Source of the DNA: a candidate division TM6 bacterium UASB124
GTDB taxonomy: Bacteria; Babelota; Babeliae; Babelales; RVW-14
DNA: 64,000 nucleotides
Direction of reading: 5' to 3'
NCBI GenBank assembly: GCA_945897315.1
Contig: CAMDFF010000002.1
Coordinates: forward strand, 23,992-87,991
In this document: positions 22,663-53,351 of the stretch, piece by piece
Numbering within the stretch: position 1 is the stretch's first letter
Layout: each line of letters starts with the position of its first letter
Made by a program: the position numbers and the translations under genes
Notes under the pieces: generated by a model
What the model saw: the letters and a program-made list of their open reading frames with translations, nothing else
What the model was told of the DNA's origin: nothing
Database searches by the model: none

Positions 22663-22753
22663 TTCCCGCTCTTTCTCGCCTGAAGGCTTCGTCCTTCGAC
22701 AGGCTCCATACTGCGCTCAGGTAGCTTCGAATGGCAGGCAGGAGGAGCGGGTT
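22663..22753. repeat. palindromic repeat element, compact copy (family member I1)
   Basis: The termini ttcccgctctttctcg ... ggaggagcgggtt are inverted. The left half is colinear with 58907..58950 (ttcccccgctttttctcgtcct...cttcgac). Confidence 0.7.
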
Positions 22754-22788
22754 TTGCTACGTTGGGTGGTCTTTTTGATTGGGGCTTG

Positions 22789-23445
22789 ATGGGCTTTTTT
22801 AAGCAAAATATACCGGTAAATTTTCTTTGCTCCGCTCACCCTGAGCTTGTCGAATGGGCGACGTCCGCTAGGACGAGAACGAGCGGGAACACACAACAAG
22901 AATCTCCCTCTGCATTTACGGTCATAGAGCTTTTGCTGGTTATTTTCTTGGGAGGCTTGCTGACGTCGATGGTGTTGCCATTATTGAACCGACAACGGCC
23001 GCAAGAGACGTGGGAGACGCTGCAGGAAGATTTAAATCAGCTTGCATCTTTTGCGCGTGAAGAAGCACTTACTAGGCGCAAAATCTATCGCATAGTGTTT
23101 CAACAAAAGCCTCAGGCTGAAGGCAAAATATTTGTAGAAGAAGAACATACTGATCCTGAACAGCCCGAAAAAAAAACATACAATGCTGTACCCGCTGGTT
23201 ATCAAAAAACATCATTAACGTTAGAGAATGGTAGAACGTTACGTGCTGTATACATCGGAAAACGCAATGTTCTAACTGATCAAGATCCACAGGCATTTTG
23301 CTATGTTATTCCTGATGGGATGATGCAACCAGTTACGATACAGATAGTGCGGGCCCATAAAAATTATGAAGAAATTGTGTCTTTCCAGTTAAATCCCTTT
23401 ATGGGAAGTTTTGATCGTCATGATGGCAAGCTTAAACCAGAATAA
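22789..23445 (+). CDS. minor pseudopilin (GspH-like by position) with an abnormally long leader
   Basis: The prepilin motif SA/FTVIELLLVIFLGGLL begins at nt 22915. The nearest in-frame starts are ATG 22789, TTG 22786 and TTG 22762, so the leader would be 42-51 aa and is encoded partly by repeat I2. Confidence 0.6.
   Translation: MGFFKQNIPVNFLCSAHPELVEWATSARTRTSGNTQQESPSAFTVIELLLVIFLGGLLTSMVLPLLNRQRPQETWETLQEDLNQLASFAREEALTRRKIYRIVFQQKPQAEGKIFVEEEHTDPEQPEKKTYNAVPAGYQKTSLTLENGRTLRAVYIGKRNVLTDQDPQAFCYVIPDGMMQPVTIQIVRAHKNYEEIVSFQLNPFMGSFDRHDGKLKPE
22832..22889. repeat. single ~58-bp module of the same repeat family (I2)
   Basis: ccgctcaccctgagcttgtcgaatgggcgacgtccgctaggacgagaacgagcgggaa. It is near-identical in layout to 30029..30084 and to the reverse complement of 58907..58967. 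Confidence 0.8.
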
Positions 23446-23845: not shown

Positions 23846-24844
23846 ATGAAGCGGTATGGTTTTACTATTCTAGAAATGCTTTTAGCTGTAGGCCTTTCGT
23901 GTGTACTGCTGTATGGTCTGATGTATGCGTTTTTGTCAGTGACACGCTATGTTACGGTCATGCGTGAAATGACGACTATGCAGCGTGCTGTGGGGCTGAC
24001 ATTTTATCAGCTGCGTACTGATGTGAGCGCGGCGTTTGTACCAGAAGTGCTATACAAAGATGAAACAGCGGAAGAAAAGCAAAAGCAAAAAGCAGCGGAC
24101 GCGCAGCTAAGTAAAGAGAAAAAAGAGGCGCAAGACAAAGCTGCCTTTAAATCGTATTTTTTGCTTTCGTTTGACGATCATCTTGATGCAAGCAAAATTG
24201 AAGGAACGCGTCGATATCCCTTTAAAATACTGAGTTTTGTGACGACTAATCCATTACACGTTTTTGGGCAAAAACAGCCTCGCTTAGTGCGCGTTGTGTA
24301 TGAAATAATTCGTAATAAAAAGAGATCAACACGAGATCGAGATGTGTTCTCATTGAGACGCAAAGAAGTAACCGATATTGCCAATGCTGAGGCTAAAGCA
24401 GGTTTTAAAGACAAAGAGCGTGAAAAAGACACTGAAGATGCTATTGTGCAGAGCTACGTGGTTGCTGATAATTTGCGTGGGGCTTACCTTGAATGTGAGC
24501 TGCTGAAAAAAGATGTGCCTCGTAAAAAAGATGAGACTGAAAAAGAGATCCCTGAAGGGGAGATGGTGCAAAGTACGACCTGGGGAGATAAAGATCCACT
24601 GCAGGGGTTTGTGCCTCGTAGCGTGAGCTGCTGGTTGTGGTTTTGGCAGGGTGATTCGCAAAAATCGATTTTGTTTGGTGAGGTGATTGAAATTAAGAGC
24701 TACCCGTCAATCCATGTAACTATTGAAGAAAAAAAATCTGAAAAGCCAACAGAGCAACCAGTTCAGCAATTAGCACCGCAGTCTCCACCTGCAGCAGAGG
24801 CTACACAACTAGGTATTGCGCTTGTACCAGGGGTGCCATCATGA
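23846..24844 (+). CDS. minor pseudopilin (GspJ-like by position), enlarged
   Basis: MKRYG/FTILEMLLAVGL. 332 aa with charged K/E-rich insertions and a P/Q-rich tail. Confidence 0.6.
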   Translation: MKRYGFTILEMLLAVGLSCVLLYGLMYAFLSVTRYVTVMREMTTMQRAVGLTFYQLRTDVSAAFVPEVLYKDETAEEKQKQKAADAQLSKEKKEAQDKAAFKSYFLLSFDDHLDASKIEGTRRYPFKILSFVTTNPLHVFGQKQPRLVRVVYEIIRNKKRSTRDRDVFSLRRKEVTDIANAEAKAGFKDKEREKDTEDAIVQSYVVADNLRGAYLECELLKKDVPRKKDETEKEIPEGEMVQSTTWGDKDPLQGFVPRSVSCWLWFWQGDSQKSILFGEVIEIKSYPSIHVTIEEKKSEKPTEQPVQQLAPQSPPAAEATQLGIALVPGVPS

Positions 24845-27951: not shown

Positions 27952-28041
27952 TTATTTGATCTGCTCGATGCGGTTTAAAAATACACTTAGGAGGCGATAG
28001 TCTTTGCCAGAGAGCAAAGGCAAAGGGGATGAAATATTTTC
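27952..28041 (-). pseudogene. orphan 3' fragment paralogous to the C-terminus of the 29615..30379 gene
   Basis: The minus strand reads ENISSPLPLLSGKDYRLLSVFLNRIEQIK*. The real gene ends EEISHGFALLSGNDYRRLKVFLHRIEQIK*, so 20 of 29 residues are identical. The fragment has no start codon, and an in-frame stop lies just upstream. Confidence 0.65.
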
Positions 28042-28043
28042 AC

Positions 28044-28081
28044 AAAAAATGAGCAGGGGTTAGTAAAAACTAACCCCTGCT
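28044..28081 (-). terminator. rho-independent terminator of the 28171..29484 gene
   Basis: 12-bp perfect stem AGCAGGGGTTAG / CTAACCCCTGCT, followed on the minus strand by TTTTTT. Confidence 0.75.
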
Positions 28082-28170: not shown

Positions 28171-29484
28171 TTATTTTTTACTAGGAGAGAGCCTTCCTAT
28201 AAGCGTTTTAAGATCTCTGGTCAGATTCATTATTCTGTCGTCAGCTACGATAAGGGAAAGACCATCCACTAAAGCGTTAAGAAGATGAAGGTTTTCTTTT
28301 TGTTTTTCTATAACGGTGTGCAATGATTGCTTACATCCTTGCAATGGAGTGCATAGCGCGCTGCTGCAAGGATATTCTAACAATTGTGTTATCTGATCAG
28401 CTGTAGCTTTCTTTAGGGCAAGCGTCAATATATCTAGCTGGCTCCCCTGAGCAGCAATATGTATCACAATAAAAAATAGACTATCATTGTGTTTTGTTAT
28501 CTCAGATATTACCTCAGCAGTTAATAATGCAATAGCTTTCTTCTTCATTATTGCTTGAAAAATGCGAATATAGTCTGACGGTTCGATAGCCTCTAAATCT
28601 CTAAGTGCACTTAATACTTGTTCTGCGGTGGTGCCACGTTGTATTAGCGTCAGAATATTAGTAACTTCTTTTATGCCTGGCATTGTGCTCGTACTACTAC
28701 TGCCTGCACCACTAGCTGCAGCACTGGCGGCAGCAGGCACGGAGCCTCCTCCAGAGCCACCGCAAAGAGGAATAGGACTTGGTGTTATTGCGGCAGTAGT
28801 TGCTGATCCGGCTCCAGAGCCGCCAGACAGAGGTGGTACTAATTTTAGTGGGGCAGATGGCTCGCGAAAAGTTAATCTTGTTTGTAGTTTGCGGGTGGTC
28901 TCTGTAAGTGGTGCGCTTGGGGCATCGGCTGCTACGGTTTTTGGAGGGGTAGCATTTGGGACCTTAAATGGTGATGTGTTTGCAGCGTGAGAGAGAGTGG
29001 CTACTGGTCTTTCAGGGCTTGCTGTAGCACCACCAGCTGCTACAGGTGCTGCTACAGGTATCGGCCTAAGCTGCACAGTAGGAGGAAGGGGCTGGTGTAA
29101 TAAGTTTCTTGGTGCTGGGCTTACTTGAGGGGTAGGTTGGCTAGCTGATATTGATGATGCTGCTGTGTGAGATGCGCTGCTAGAGCTTGATGCTCTAGCC
29201 GGATCTTGCTGTGGTAGTGGTGCTAGTGGTTGAGCTGGTTTGCGGCCTAAAGGTCGAGGTGTTTTTAGAGGTGATGGTGAGGTTGCGATGGATGATGGTG
29301 AAAGCACAGAAGACGATGGTGATCTTGTGATGGATGATGGTGAAGTCACAGAAGGCAATGGAGCCCCTGCTGCTGATCGTATTGCTGGAAAAGCACCAGC
29401 TCCGCCGTTTGCAGAACTAGAAAAAAGTGACGATGACCCAATGGTATATGCAATACCAAGAGTGATAATAATGCGATTAACCAT
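28171..29484 (-). CDS. hypothetical protein: signal peptide, ~270-aa Pro/Ser/Ala-rich low-complexity region, ~160-aa helical C-terminal domain
   Basis: 437 aa. MVNRIIITLGIAYTIGSSSLFSS, then SPSS/AAPV/GGSG-type low complexity. The C-terminal domain has one ankyrin-like stretch (FFIVIHIAAQGSQLDILTLALKK). GC-rich relative to the flanks. Confidence 0.6.
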   Translation of the reverse strand: MVNRIIITLGIAYTIGSSSLFSSSANGGAGAFPAIRSAAGAPLPSVTSPSSITRSPSSSVLSPSSIATSPSPLKTPRPLGRKPAQPLAPLPQQDPARASSSSSASHTAASSISASQPTPQVSPAPRNLLHQPLPPTVQLRPIPVAAPVAAGGATASPERPVATLSHAANTSPFKVPNATPPKTVAADAPSAPLTETTRKLQTRLTFREPSAPLKLVPPLSGGSGAGSATTAAITPSPIPLCGGSGGGSVPAAASAAASGAGSSSTSTMPGIKEVTNILTLIQRGTTAEQVLSALRDLEAIEPSDYIRIFQAIMKKKAIALLTAEVISEITKHNDSLFFIVIHIAAQGSQLDILTLALKKATADQITQLLEYPCSSALCTPLQGCKQSLHTVIEKQKENLHLLNALVDGLSLIVADDRIMNLTRDLKTLIGRLSPSKK

Positions 29485-29614: not shown

Positions 29615-30379
29615 TTATTTGATCTGCTCAATACGATGTAAAAAAACCTTTAGCCGTCGATAATCGTTGCCTGAAAGCAAAGCAAATCCGTGGCTAATTT
29701 CTTCTAAGAGGTTAGCCGAGAGTAGGTTTTTAGCTTTAACCGTACGAATAATAGCTAGCAAAAGCTCATCTAAATTCTGAATAGCGTTAGAAAAACCATA
29801 CAGAACCTCTAAAAATTGGGCGTCGGCGAAGAATTGTGTAGTCAGTGTGTCAGGAGCTTCGCTGACAAAAGCATGGATCTTAGGAGGTGTAGGCGGTATA
29901 GCAAAGATGATCGGAGAATCCGCTCTTTCTTGGCCCGTTGGGCCGGCGGCCTGCGACAAGCTCAGGGTGAGCGGTTTTGCTAAGCCATGCGTATCATCTA
30001 CATTAATTAAAGAATCGATTATTTCTCTCCGCTCACCCTGAGCTTGTCGAGCGGGCGAGCTCGTAGAGTGAGAAAGAGTGGGTTTAATGTACCCACAGGC
30101 CTGCACAGAAAATGTTGTCTTCAGAAAAGCAAAAATTTGTGGCTGTTCCCGTTCTAGCTCTTCTTCAGTTTTTTGATACGCAAATGGTGTGCGTGATGGA
30201 TCCATTGATCCTGTTTGGATATTGGTGACGATTCCTAAAATGTGGAGCTCTTTGTCTTGAATACTGACAAGCGAACCAAAGGTAGGGAACTGTTTCCAGT
30301 TCCAGCATTGTGCTGTGTAATGGTCAAGGGACGATTCTATGACCTCAGCAAAAAAGGGATGTTTGTTTTGGTTCTTCAT
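29615..30379 (-). CDS. hypothetical protein carrying a repeat-element-encoded internal segment
   Basis: 254-aa ORF that overlaps the rnhB stop by 35 nt. Roughly residues 99-154 (KPTLSHSTSSPARQAQGE...KPLTLSLSQAAGPTGQERAD) are encoded by repeat I3. Confidence 0.55.
   Translation of the reverse strand: MKNQNKHPFFAEVIESSLDHYTAQCWNWKQFPTFGSLVSIQDKELHILGIVTNIQTGSMDPSRTPFAYQKTEEELEREQPQIFAFLKTTFSVQACGYIKPTLSHSTSSPARQAQGERREIIDSLINVDDTHGLAKPLTLSLSQAAGPTGQERADSPIIFAIPPTPPKIHAFVSEAPDTLTTQFFADAQFLEVLYGFSNAIQNLDELLLAIIRTVKAKNLLSANLLEEISHGFALLSGNDYRRLKVFLHRIEQIK
29918..30084. repeat. full palindromic repeat element (I3) inside an ORF
   Basis: Perfect 21-bp inverted arms cgacaagctcagggtgagcgg (29954..29974) and ccgctcaccctgagcttgtcg (30029..30049). 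The outer inverted ends are tccgctctttct / agaaagagtggg. Confidence 0.85.
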
Positions 30380-31052
30380 GATGCTCTACAAAATTTTTAA
30401 TAAAGGTTGTCCGATGAATGGAGCAGGGGCCATGGGTTTTTAGAGCTGCAATGTGCTCTGGGGTGCCATATCCTTTGTGTTGTGCAAAATTATAAGCTGG
30501 AAATTGCTCTGAGAGCGATTCCATGAGTCGGTCACGCGTTACCTTGGCAACAATTGATGCGGCGGCAATGGAGGGCGATAGTGACTCACCATAGTTAAAA
30601 TAGTGGCATTCTAGTGAGCTATGTTTTTCTTCTGGAGCAATTTTTAAGGGCATTGCATCCACCAAAACATATTTTAATTCGTGCGCATTGCACGGTAATT
30701 TTTTTATGATGCCCAGATACGCTTGTTTCATAGCTACAAGCGTAGCCTGATAAATATTAATTGTATCTATCGTTACGTGGTCAGCCATAGCAATCGTCCA
30801 GGTGCAGTGCTCATCAATCCATGCAAAGGCTTTTTCACGAGCAGCTTTGGACATTAGTTTTGAATCTTTGAGCATTGGCTGATGAGTATTAACTGGCAGT
30901 ATGACGGCACCAACAACTACCGGTCCAGCAAGGCAGCCACGGCCTGCTTCATCAATGCCAATTGCATAATGTTGCTGAGCCCATGCGTCAGTTTCAAAGT
31001 AAGATTTTTGAATGTTTTGTGTGCTGTTTTTCATAATATTGCATGTTACCAT
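30345..31052 (-). CDS. rnhB: ribonuclease HII
   Basis: IGIDEAGRGCLAGPVVVGAV (the DEAGRG catalytic motif), plus SIAAASIVAKVTRD and KGYGT. Confidence 0.9.
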   Translation of the reverse strand: MVTCNIMKNSTQNIQKSYFETDAWAQQHYAIGIDEAGRGCLAGPVVVGAVILPVNTHQPMLKDSKLMSKAAREKAFAWIDEHCTWTIAMADHVTIDTINIYQATLVAMKQAYLGIIKKLPCNAHELKYVLVDAMPLKIAPEEKHSSLECHYFNYGESLSPSIAAASIVAKVTRDRLMESLSEQFPAYNFAQHKGYGTPEHIAALKTHGPCSIHRTTFIKNFVEHHEEPKQTSLFC

Positions 31053-51115: not shown

Positions 51116-52186
51116 TTAGCGTAGGGCAGGGCACTCTTCTAAGTAATGATGCAGCTGTTTTTGCAAGGTGTAATGCTGGGCAGCAACAAAGCTGCGCTCG
51201 CTCATTGTTTCTCGTGCCTGCGTGTCATGAAGATAAGTGTTGATCTTTTCTACTAACTCGTCAATGCCTTCAAAGCAGGCAATGGAATAATCTTCTTGAA
51301 AGAAGAGCTTGGATTGTTGATCGGTGCGCTCAGTTAGCAGGAATGATTTTGTTGCAGGAACCTCGAAGGTGCGCATGTTGTGGGCATGTGCATTTTGTGC
51401 TCTCAGCAGATTGAGGATGATTTTTGATTTTTTATAAATATCGATCATTGCATCAGCATAAATAGCCTTTCCCATCAGATGTTTTTTGATATGCGAAGAA
51501 GTTGCATGCTCATGCCAGCCGTTTCCCCAGATGCCAAATGTAACGTTTGGTAGTCGCATTATTGCTTGCTCCAAAAATGCTTCTCGTTCTGGCTCCCATG
51601 TGCCAATAAAACAGATATCGATCTGTTCGTTCTCTCTTGCTCTCTGAGCGTTGTCTTTCGACGAGCTCAGGATGTGCGGTTTTTGTTTATCATTATAAAT
51701 AGTGTCGTCATAAGCAAACGGGAAAGAGCACACGTGAGGGGACCCTGAAGCCAGGAGTGCTGGGGTAAGTATGGGTGACCACGATAAAAAACAGTCAAAT
51801 AGTGGCAGCGATTTTAAAATAGACTCTGTTGAGTTACCGTTCCAGAGGGCGTATGGATTATCCGGGTAAAAATTGACGACACGCGCACCAGCTGATTTGA
51901 TGGCCGCGATAGTGCGTGGGGTGATGTGTTGTCCCTTGAGAATAAAGACCAGTGACGGGCTATGTTGTTTTACTGCTGCCAGAATAGTTTTATTTATGCC
52001 TGCTATTGCAAGTGGCAGAGCAATTTTATTAATTACTGGAGTGTTCTGAAATGGTCCAACTGGGCTGCAATCTACCTGTGCTGTTTCGTAACCTAGTAGT
52101 TGAAACGTTTTATAAAATGATGATGCATAGGTATAAATATTCGGGTCGGTACTAAATTTACCAACAATAAGTACTTTCTTATTCAT
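51116..52186 (-). CDS. CgeB-like glycosyltransferase-family protein (Glyco_trans_1_2 type)
   Basis: CFIGTWEPEREAFLEQ...NLLRAQNAHAHNMRTFEVPATKSFLLTE resembles CgeB/DUF3880-type proteins. I chose the start at MNKKVLIVGKF. Confidence 0.5.
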   Translation of the reverse strand: MNKKVLIVGKFSTDPNIYTYASSFYKTFQLLGYETAQVDCSPVGPFQNTPVINKIALPLAIAGINKTILAAVKQHSPSLVFILKGQHITPRTIAAIKSAGARVVNFYPDNPYALWNGNSTESILKSLPLFDCFLSWSPILTPALLASGSPHVCSFPFAYDDTIYNDKQKPHILSSSKDNAQRARENEQIDICFIGTWEPEREAFLEQAIMRLPNVTFGIWGNGWHEHATSSHIKKHLMGKAIYADAMIDIYKKSKIILNLLRAQNAHAHNMRTFEVPATKSFLLTERTDQQSKLFFQEDYSIACFEGIDELVEKINTYLHDTQARETMSERSFVAAQHYTLQKQLHHYLEECPALR

Positions 52187-53351
52187 GGCCAACCAATTTT
52201 TTATAGACCTGAAAGACTTTTTCGCCATATGCATCCCATGAAAAGGCCTGAATGTGATTATGTGCTTGTTGCCCAATCTGTGCAGCAGCGGTACGATTTT
52301 GGTAGCACCAGGTTATCTGTTGTGCGAGTGCGCTAATATCGTAGGGACTGTATAAAAAACCCGTGGTGCCATGTGTGACCAAGTCTTGTCCGCCTGTGTG
52401 GGTGCTGACAATGACTGGCAGCCCCGTGGCCATTGCTTCGCCGATTACCATTGCAAGGCCCTCTTGCACTGATGGCAGCACGAAAGCACTTGCTTGATGG
52501 TATTGCTCTCTGAGAGCTTCGCGCGTTATGCCACCCAGAAAAGATACGTTGATGCTATGGGGTAATTTATTCTTAATGAGTAAGAAATCTTTTTGAATTG
52601 AGCCAACAATTATTAACTCTGTATCGTTAATGGGTAATTGTGCCTGTTGCCATGCATGTAATAAATAATCAATACCCTTTTGCAAGCTGACCATACCAAC
52701 AAAAAGCAGTCTAAATTTTTTTCTCAGACGGGGCAGTTGAGGAGGTTTGAAAAAGCTAAGATCGACACCATATGGCACAACAGCTATTTTCGCAGCATTA
52801 AAACCTTTATCAAGAAAGCTCTGTTGCACAAAGCTTGATGGTGTCATGATGAGGTCTGCTTCTTCGTATTCCAATCGTGCCTGATCTTGTCTTTTTTTAT
52901 TGTGACTGGTGAAAGTAAGACCATAACGGGCGTATTCTTGCTGGATTAATAACTCTTGTGTGTCTGTGTGGCATGAGCCGGTTTCAAGAATAATTTTTGA
53001 TGCTTGAATGCGTTTTGTTGGCAAGGAGTGGTGCAAAAAACCAGACCAGCCGACAAGAAGATCGAATTGAGTTTCGTGCGGCAAGGCTTTGCTGACTCCG
53101 CGCTCAAAAATCCTGTCTTTAAAGCTATTAAATGTTGTGCGATTAATAACACGTGCAAGCCGTGCTTTTTCAAAAATGGTATTGAGAAGACCACAGGTTT
53201 TGTTGTGAGCAACGTAGGAGGGAGGTACCTTCTGTGCGTCACGTGTGGTGTAATCAAATGTGTACAGCCGTTGCAGAGCGTTACGCTTAAGAAGTTGCTG
53301 CGCAAGGGCATATGCGTGAAAACGGCCACCAGAGCATACAATTACCTTCAT
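52179..53351 (-). CDS. glycosyltransferase, GT4
   Basis: The start is MKVIVCSGGRFHAY. It also has VGMVSLQKGIDYLLHAW and VQEGLAMVIGEAMATGLPVIVSTHTGGQDLV. Confidence 0.75.
   Translation of the reverse strand: MKVIVCSGGRFHAYALAQQLLKRNALQRLYTFDYTTRDAQKVPPSYVAHNKTCGLLNTIFEKARLARVINRTTFNSFKDRIFERGVSKALPHETQFDLLVGWSGFLHHSLPTKRIQASKIILETGSCHTDTQELLIQQEYARYGLTFTSHNKKRQDQARLEYEEADLIMTPSSFVQQSFLDKGFNAAKIAVVPYGVDLSFFKPPQLPRLRKKFRLLFVGMVSLQKGIDYLLHAWQQAQLPINDTELIIVGSIQKDFLLIKNKLPHSINVSFLGGITREALREQYHQASAFVLPSVQEGLAMVIGEAMATGLPVIVSTHTGGQDLVTHGTTGFLYSPYDISALAQQITWCYQNRTAAAQIGQQAHNHIQAFSWDAYGEKVFQVYKKLVGHE

Follow-up and report, generated by a model that had tools for sequence, protein, structure and literature searches.

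An in-frame palindromic repeat in the interdomain linker of a HAS-barrel protein gene from a Dependentiae bacterium

The gene for a HAS-barrel protein in candidate division TM6 bacterium UASB124, a member of the Dependentiae, contains a palindromic DNA element of 162 nt, equivalent to 54 codons, that keeps the reading frame of the gene. The element occupies positions 29920..30081 of the window, which is the whole 64,000-nt stretch analysed here (positions 23,992 to 87,991 of contig CAMDFF010000002.1, assembly GCA_945897315.1). We consider it highly likely that the element is a non-autonomous two-module hairpin repeat that inserted into the linker following the HAS-barrel, that it is read through, and that its family has spread in trans. 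Dependentiae are intracellular parasites of protists, and the occurrence of selfish palindromic DNA in frame inside genes is hereby extended from Rickettsia to an unrelated phylum. A sequence-only reading of the window had likened the behaviour of the element to that of the Rickettsia palindromic elements (RPEs), reportedly the subject of Ogata et al. in 2000. This comparison is right as a description of behaviour and brings in no new principle; the more interesting question is whether a small GIY-YIG nuclease encoded by relatives moves the modules. The genome that contains the window (G000) is a 1.26-Mb metagenome assembly of 49 contigs, 95%-complete and with 42.8% G+C, and the window lies on its contig C2.

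The element in the HAS-barrel linker

The host gene (29615..30379, minus strand) encodes a protein of 254 aa, in which a HerA-type barrel at the N-terminus is followed by a helical domain at the C-terminus. As the sequence-only reading had observed, the open reading frame (ORF) stays open along its whole length, across the palindromic element. The Pfam HAS-barrel family PF09378 matches residues 11-97 (E = 1.6e-8), and Foldseek matches the protein model to the N-terminal barrel region of HerA proteins; no NCBIfam model matches the host protein. It has 977 homologues, nearly all of 196-220 aa, whose names point to Dependentiae/Babeliales, and the gene was found in 39/40 relatives searched, across 17 families of the order.

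The evidence for insertion comes from the empty sites of these relatives. Alignment with orthologues, which had been proposed as a check, gives a clear result: proteins 88-89% identical over the aligned (non-insert) columns are without exactly this segment (residues ~100-154), and the two halves (residues 1-~99 and ~155-254) adjoin each other directly in 38 of the 39 relatives with the gene, the sole exception being G003 of the same genus. The linker reads GYI-PASSQ-IIF in orthologues and GYI-K-(about 53 aa)-SP-IIF in the host protein, which places the insertion point in a five-residue linker between the last HAS-barrel strand (…GYI) and the C-terminal domain (IIFAIPP…). Alignment of the filled sites with empty sites at the DNA level (L032, and G002 in L036) agrees with insertion. 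The empty linker of G002 (L036, G002:C76) reads ACAGCAGAAGAGCCAAACC and contains AGAAGAGCC, a sequence similar to the element terminus AGAAGAGCG(A/G); this likeness may be due to chance, a footprint or a preferred target.

Comparison of all family copies, using the module consensus and the terminal inverted repeat, sets the ends of the element at 29920 and 30081. A palindromic element had been recognised here before, with limits slightly outside these (29918-30084, 167 bp). The element spans CCGCTCTTTCT to its inverted copy AGAAAGAGTGG, and these two termini pair with each other as terminal inverted repeats in addition to the longer arms. Module A (29920..29974, plus strand, subtype 1) consists of CCGCTCTTTCT, a small hairpin GGCCC-GTT-GGGCC and the arm CGACAAGCTCAGGGTGAGCGG at 29954-29974. 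Module B (30029..30081, minus strand, subtype 2) is inverted and consists of the arm at 30029-30049, a small hairpin CTC-TAC-GAG and the terminus AGAAAGAGTGG. The two arms form the perfect 21-bp inverted repeat already described by the sequence-only reading, and they are separated by an AT-rich spacer of 54 nt (29975..30028), which constitutes the loop of the long hairpin and has no similarity to the spacers of other two-module copies. Both arms match the family consensus without a mismatch (42/42 positions), and 25 other modules of the genome share the register of module A. The folding energy of the whole element is -73 kcal/mol as RNA (z = -6.4) and -43 kcal/mol as DNA (z = -6.8), with no shuffle as low in either case (0/200). 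An Rfam match to MIR390, at 25.6 bits versus a threshold of 77, was rejected as a chance match to the long hairpin, and Rfam returned nothing else matching the element.

In the host gene the element extends from position 2 of codon 100 to position 1 of codon 154, such that residues 101-153 are wholly element-encoded, in agreement with the peptide quoted earlier for residues ~99-154. The encoded peptide includes ...TLSHSTSSPARQAQGERREIIDSLINVDDTHGLAKPLTLSLSQAAGPTGQERA... in the host frame, and EIIDSLINVDDTHGLAKPLTLSLSQAAGPTGQER is an example of an insert-encoded tryptic peptide predicted from the sequence. The length of the element is a multiple of three, and only one of its six frames is stop-free, namely the one in the register of the host gene; the insert is presumably translated.

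The insert is tolerated because the linker that it occupies is short and joins two folded parts, so that additional residues leave the fold undisturbed. In an AlphaFold2 model of the host protein built on 117 sequences, the predicted local distance difference test (pLDDT) score is >90 for residues 5-100 and 156-254, and residues 101-155 have a pLDDT of 44-66 and no secondary structure; GYI closes the strand 86-98, and the chain is taken up again at IIFAIPP. According to this model, the insert adds ~53 hydrophilic, disordered residues as a surface loop, and the low-confidence coil between two confidently folded parts bears out the loop that the sequence-only reading had suggested looking for. 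The frame of the host gene is intact and the invariant residues are kept. Versus same-genus orthologues, over 198 ungapped codons, nonsynonymous divergence (dN) is 0.06-0.12 with synonymous divergence (dS) saturated, which indicates that the flanks are under strong purifying selection and that the gene is not a pseudogene, an alternative raised at the outset. It had also been suggested that the family is either tolerated or selected in coding DNA. Tolerance is upheld, here and in the four further genes described below; selection is not, as the data show tolerance after a selective sieve rather than selection for inserts.

The same-genus genome G003, which has the same sequence as contig L031, contains a two-module element of 150 nt in this HAS-barrel linker. 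The element at 29920..30081 combines subtypes 2 + 1, and the L031 element subtypes 3 + 3. The left part of the L031 element is 1 nt longer, and because the left parts differ by this 1 nt, the arms of the two inserts are read in different frames, as STSSGRA in L031 versus RQAQGER here. The junctions of the two inserts differ by 2-3 nt. The protein tree joins P0002 as sister to the insert-free P0003/P0004 (support 95/96) and puts P0001 outside. Subtypes, frames, junctions and tree together point to a separate insertion in G003/L031, and its insert is very probably independent, not inherited. The insertion could not be dated by dS because dS is saturated between G000 and G003, yet the arms here match the consensus at 42/42 positions, which an old unconstrained relic is unlikely to keep. 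In four proteins from other Dependentiae lineages (P0023, P0067, P0030 and P0048), the same linker holds unrelated inserts, 21-39 residues long. Two of these four have peptides like those of repetitive extragenic palindromic (REP) sequences (…VRPE…RRLEG…): SVRPEEPNRRLEG and SPVRPACPSKSRFEAGRRLEEPKGHLEG. For protein evolution, this means that one five-residue linker has been struck repeatedly and independently. Read most simply, the linker is a permissive site let through by selection, and there may in addition be a target preference for it.

Other explanations of the insert and of its G003 counterpart have been weighed on the same evidence. One ancestral insertion in the common ancestor of G000 and G003/L031, with later precise excision or recombinational replacement in P0003/P0004 and P0005/P0006, would account for two inserts that are both two-module, have their arms inward and lie within one codon of each other in the linker, and the deepest three-way split of the clade has no firm branching order in the tree. 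We nevertheless regard it as unlikely, since the subtypes and arm frames differ, the grouping of P0002 with insert-free proteins requires at least one or two precise losses, the arms here equal the consensus in spite of saturated dS, and the unrelated inserts in four other proteins indicate that the site is simply permissive. It is quite unlikely that the insert has been co-opted and is kept by selection, whether in the protein, as a loop that tethers flexibly or mediates interactions, or in the mRNA, as a structure that would slow ribosomes or determine transcript stability between the two domains. Such a role would fit the perfect conservation of both arms, the stability of the mRNA hairpin (-73 kcal/mol) and the repeated hits on the same linker in different lineages, but the insert is missing from 38/39 gene-bearing relatives, no peptide sequence is common to the two inserts, the family occurs in many unrelated proteins and in intergenic DNA, and the model gives the segment no structure. 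Repeats are classic misassembly sites and the genome is a metagenome assembly in 49 contigs, which brings up a misassembled repeat or a chimeric bin; this is very improbable, given that the gene is in frame and in register on both sides with 54 codons in the sole open frame, which is unexpected for a random mis-join, that the independent assembly of L031/G003 has a related element at the same place, and that four other genes of this genome have equally clean in-frame inserts. The idea that the segment is an ancestral linker lost by relatives is effectively refuted, because its DNA is a member of a dispersed repeat family with arms perfect to the consensus and because, among 39 gene-bearing genomes from 17 families, the insert is present only here and in G003.

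The repeat family in this genome and beyond

The unit of the family is a module of ~55 nt that consists of CCGCTCTTTCT, a small hairpin, CCC(A)TT and the arm CGACAAGCTCA-GGG-TGAGCGG. Three module subtypes differ in the small hairpin, the stem of which varies by compensatory changes (GGCCC/GGGCC, GGCTC/GAGCC, GTCC/GGAC, GTTC/GAAC, GCTC/GAGC, GCCC/GGGC and CCCC/GGGG). A second covariation connects the 3 nt before (A)TTCGAC with the loop triplet of GCTCA-NNN-TGAGC, and the triplet pairs observed are CCC/GGG, TCC/GGA, TGG/CCA and GCC/GGC. The triplets are complementary in 24/26 modules of this genome (in the element, for example, window positions 29948-29950 with 29965-29967) and in 9/12 chosen G003 variants (GCC/GGC four times, TGG/CCA four times and TCC/GGA once), and the picture is mixed in the more distant G008 and G040. 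Because the copies are related, the triplet covariation amounts to perhaps three or four independent events, with the TGG/CCA triple change being the strongest; on sequence grounds, it suggests a pseudoknot or guide-like pairing. A column-wise covariation test was set aside because the three subtypes align in different registers, which makes a single structure line unfair, and per-module folding and direct inspection of independent variants were used in its place. Modules occur singly or paired with different subtypes. The arms of a pair face inward in the element at 29920..30081 and in the pairs at C4, C8 and C1:174300, and outward in the gene-less pairs at C9, C34 and C2:82831.

The arm motif (at most 3 mismatches) occurs five times in the window, with 0 expected from 100 shuffles, and a BLAST search of the genome gives 33 matches. 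The genome contains ~27 arm loci at up to 5 mismatches, and 23 arm matches at up to 3 mismatches. When the placement of the ~27 loci was tallied by hand, 10 were internal and in frame with host domains on both sides, 5 were at or near an ORF start, 2 were at an ORF end, and 10 were in no long ORF. Five in-frame inserts, including that of the HAS-barrel protein, were verified against relatives. The other four are found in MnmA (~27 aa), a YfiH-like (Cu-oxidase_4) protein (~42 aa), UppP/BacA (~52 aa) and a NagZ-NamZ fusion (~62 aa); each is in frame and absent from relatives, and the filled-site and empty-site evidence is clean in all five genes. The Pfam layout places most inserts between domains or at domain edges, and from this layout further inserts are likely in PepA, a histidine kinase, two glycosyltransferases and TrmD. 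The PepA and C28 GT4 inserts are kept in this second group because one alignment piece spans the site, and the TrmD arm match at C2:17083, with 5 mismatches, is a diverged candidate only. An arm match in the C46 transketolase (5 mismatches) was discarded as probably due to chance.

The encoded peptide is set by the orientation and frame of the module and reads RQAQGER, DKLRVSG, AHPELVE, PLTLSLS or STSSGRA, the last only in variants that lose TGA. In annotation, RQAQGER, AHPELVE, STSSGRA and FDKLRVSG in conserved proteins should consequently be taken as repeat-derived loops, not as domains. Two ORFs, G000:C1:173301-174323 (…RQAHHER before the stop) and G000:C4:40664-41722 (…FDKLRVSENNNAESST before the stop), end inside modules, which indicates that the repeats also donate C-terminal tails and stop codons. 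Modules are likewise located at the ORF starts C24:2277, C15:2600 and C4:40602. In a genome of the same family (L072, G008:C1:56700-58500), UppP/BacA has an in-frame insert of ~280 residues in the same loop that holds ~52 aa here. Its open frame is 573 aa long versus the usual ~290, and the insert comprises at least 4 family modules with peptides such as FDPSTSSGRTELRANG, RQAQGER and VCPELVEG.

Three further copies lie in the window. A family arm with 0 mismatches (22832..22852, minus strand) is located in the 5' part of ORF 22684-23445 (plus strand), where it reads SAHPELVE. A diverged arm with 3 mismatches (51659..51679, plus strand) is in frame in a glycosyltransferase-like ORF (51116-52312, minus strand), just upstream of the Glyco_trans_1_2 domain. 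A two-module copy at 58840..58966 has its arms outward (58840-58860 on the minus strand and 58946-58966 on the plus strand) and falls in the N-terminal extension of a GT4 glycosyltransferase ORF (58737-60182, plus strand); this putatively translated extension is lineage-specific, since orthologues match only from residue 96-107 onward.

The family is not confined to Dependentiae. At least 120 stretches contain the 23-nt pattern TTCGACAAGCTCAGGNTGAGCGG without a mismatch; they come from Chloroflexota (Dehalococcoidia, SAR202), Alphaproteobacteria (many Sphingomonadales), Gammaproteobacteria, Acidobacteriota, Thermodesulfobacteriota, Elusimicrobia, Binatia, Myxococcota and Dependentiae. The 23-nt arm is thus unchanged in at least 8 phylum-level groups, which implies that it has spread horizontally or is very strongly constrained. 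The first 80 loci (L095-L174) are dominated by Sphingomonadales and Dehalococcoidia.

A candidate partner nuclease

In L031/G003, a gene for a 109-aa GIY-YIG protein (L031:374-703) lies two genes upstream of the host gene, between inverted modules with their arms outward, and the last 14 residues of this protein (…RSSTPTGRPSTSSG) are module-encoded. Pfam assigns the nuclease to GIY-YIG, no NCBIfam model matches it, and among solved structures the UPF0213 proteins BH0048 and EF2693 are closest to it. Flanking inverted repeats are present at 9 of 12 nuclease loci of relatives: four loci (G003, G002, G012 and G020) are bracketed by the family arm, and five by other inverted repeats of 18-60 nt that have a CCG(C/T)TC… outer end in common. 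G003 has 80 arm matches and 4 nuclease copies, and G002 has 44 and 3, respectively. In a Sphingomonas metagenome-assembled genome (MAG; L102), the identical arm abuts a nuclease gene that is 52% identical.

We propose that the ~109-aa UPF0213-type GIY-YIG nuclease, whose gene same-genus and same-family relatives have between inverted modules, probably spreads the modules in trans and that it presumably recognises the folded single-stranded module, as the compensatory changes in the small hairpin and the complementary triplet pairs suggest. The copies in this genome are probably now stranded, because the assembly is without the nuclease gene. Nuclease copies with an internal stop occur in relatives (G003:C42:24436-24762, G003:C8:8140-8448, G012:C5:17388-17702 and others), and such decaying genes fit a genome left with repeats but no enzyme. 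More tentatively, the module and a ~100-aa UPF0213-type GIY-YIG nuclease might constitute a separate and very small class of mobile DNA, driven by the nuclease and spread across many phyla. In such a class, the covarying triplet pair would act like the guide/cleavage-site pairing of IS200/IS605, and reduced intracellular genomes such as those of Dependentiae would keep gene-less modules mainly as in-frame loops in essential proteins.

Several observations weigh against an inserted repeat mobilised by this nuclease. The small GIY-YIG gene was not found in the present 95%-complete assembly with the Pfam model, tblastn or a protein search; the sole GIY-YIG match in this genome is within a 529-aa open frame, which we take to be UvrC. 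The arms here are pristine, which fits recent mobility better than a long-stranded relic, unless the nuclease gene falls within the 5% that the assembly lacks or selection or gene conversion maintains the arms. The arms of the element face inward and those of the nuclease cassette outward, a reversal that makes simple deletion from the cassette an improbable origin of the element, although gene-less pairs with outward arms do occur elsewhere in the genome. Arm counts and nuclease genes are imperfectly matched across genomes, with 21 arms and no nuclease in G040, and a nuclease with no arms of this sequence in G019 and G037. Only 2 of 80 loci from other phyla, one of them that of the Sphingomonas MAG, lie within a few kb of a GIY-YIG homologue. 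The folds of single modules are more stable than those of shuffles by a modest margin only (mean z = -1.0). In four comparisons of filled with empty sites, where junctions can be placed to 1-3 nt, neither a target-site duplication nor a conserved target was seen. Finally, we know of no GIY-YIG enzyme shown to transpose such repeats.

The modules might instead be moved by another agent, such as a Y1 transposase of the REP-associated tyrosine transposase (RAYT) type, a different transposase supplied in trans, or slippage during replication or recombination at the hairpins. The nuclease would then be only a neighbour or a host-side hairpin cutter, as has been proposed for SsnA in controlling transformation. 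We hold this to be possible, though doubtful. It would explain why this genome, with 23 arm matches at up to 3 mismatches, and G040, with 21, both do without the nuclease, and why the element is probably not a deletion derivative of the cassette. Ssn, the sole characterised repeat-associated GIY-YIG family, is a site-specific nuclease of single-stranded DNA (ssDNA) that modulates transformation (PMC11893778). Y1 genes exist in G007 and, broken, in G003. However, no arms lie within about 500 nt of either, and no match to the Y1 transposase family (PF01797) was found in this genome or in G002, G012 and G022, which have 23-44 arm matches each; a RAYT/Y1 partner is accordingly not supported, its genes being absent here and unflanked in relatives. 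A mover other than the nuclease would also leave unexplained the inverted modules on both sides of the GIY-YIG gene in several genera and the arm that abuts a homologous nuclease gene in the Sphingomonas MAG.

Known repeat systems and the gene neighbourhood

Whatever moves it, the element resembles a bacterial interspersed mosaic element (BIME), a miniature inverted-repeat transposable element (MITE) or an RPE in kind. In-frame palindromic repeats are established for the RPEs of Rickettsia (review PMC10969869), intragenic REPs that preserve the frame are known from several phyla (Di Nocera, De Gregorio and Rocco 2013, PMC3733652), and expression at the protein level has been shown for some RPEs (PMC3733652). 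Like the element, RPEs are palindromic repeats of ~100-150 bp in the small genome of an obligate intracellular bacterium; they lie in frame in unrelated housekeeping genes whose orthologues are without the segment, and they are read through as an extra peptide at fold-compatible positions, as is probable here. Unlike the element, RPEs belong to Alphaproteobacteria and to another sequence family, and the element is modular, with two ~55-nt units of different subtypes.

Literal membership in the RPEs, as opposed to RPE-like behaviour, does not follow from these likenesses. RPE-4 and RPE-6 are CGTC-tagged REPs, and CGTC repeats are reported to be without a dedicated transposase (PMC3733652). A CGTC-REP is defined by a terminal CGTC tag, an 8-9-bp stem starting with A-T pairs, a 4-5-nt loop and a short CCA-like tail (PMC3733652). 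The modules have internal stems of 4-5 bp, CCGCTC/GAGCGG termini and no tag-stem-tail layout, and, unlike CGTC repeats, they have a candidate partner gene in relatives. With REPs and BIMEs in general the modules share short hairpin units, distinct subtypes and an alternating orientation in mosaic dimers, and in relatives they share with REP/RAYT systems an enzyme gene flanked by inverted repeats. They differ in being longer (~55 nt), in having a three-part structure and no GTAG or CGTC tag, and in bracketing a GIY-YIG nuclease rather than a Y1 (HUH) transposase.

A published parallel for the nuclease is provided by the Ssn GIY-YIG nucleases, which cut ssDNA at hairpin repeats flanking their genes and modulate transformation (Chenal et al. 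2025, PMC11893778); the insertion sequence (IS)-like architecture of Ssn loci was noted by the authors as a hypothesis only (PMC11893778). Ssn with its NTS/SRM repeats resembles the present family in that a small single-domain GIY-YIG gene is flanked on both sides by a dispersed hairpin repeat (here in relatives only), and in being distributed over many phyla and enriched in symbionts. In contrast to Ssn systems, this genome has the repeats without the nuclease. The SRM pattern HGTCWYN(0-2)YYVSBRHN(0-5)WNVSBRGN(0-2)RNCYNB matches 0/32 modules and gives 2 matches genome-wide, versus 2.4 in shuffles. The family consequently adds a case to the published link of small GIY-YIG nucleases with dispersed hairpin repeats, with a repeat that lies outside the published motif. 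In Chenal et al. 2025 (PMC11893778), a term search turned up nothing on repeats that reside in frame within genes.

Classical MITEs (Correia/NEMIS, Nezha and ERIC; PMC10969869) are, like the element, short and non-coding, with terminal inverted repeats and many copies, and they sometimes form in-frame fusions with host ORFs and depend on an enzyme in trans, as is likely here. The element differs from them in that neither a target-site duplication nor a parent IS with a DDE transposase was seen, and in that it is probably not an internal-deletion derivative of the gene-bearing form, with which it shares the modules but in reversed orientation. In the library searched, we found no paper on palindromic repeats in Dependentiae and, besides Chenal 2025, none on bacterial GIY-YIG MITEs.

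The host gene lies in a conserved gene order that consists of a LexA-like gene, rnhB and the HAS-barrel gene. The rnhB gene (RNase HII; 30345..31052, minus strand; Pfam PF01351, E = 3e-33) is upstream in an operon with the host gene, and its end overlaps the start of the host gene by 35 nt, an overlap that is kept in L031 and L032. The last ~30 codons of the HAS-barrel gene recur as a start-less copy, 67% identical, at window positions 27955-28044 (G000:C2:51946-52035), beyond a P/S/A-rich gene at 28171-29484; because of this partial copy beyond it, gene 28171-29484 looks inserted with duplication of the 3' end of the host gene. G003 contains a similar HAS-barrel fragment, and a Fic-domain gene comes after its HAS-barrel gene.

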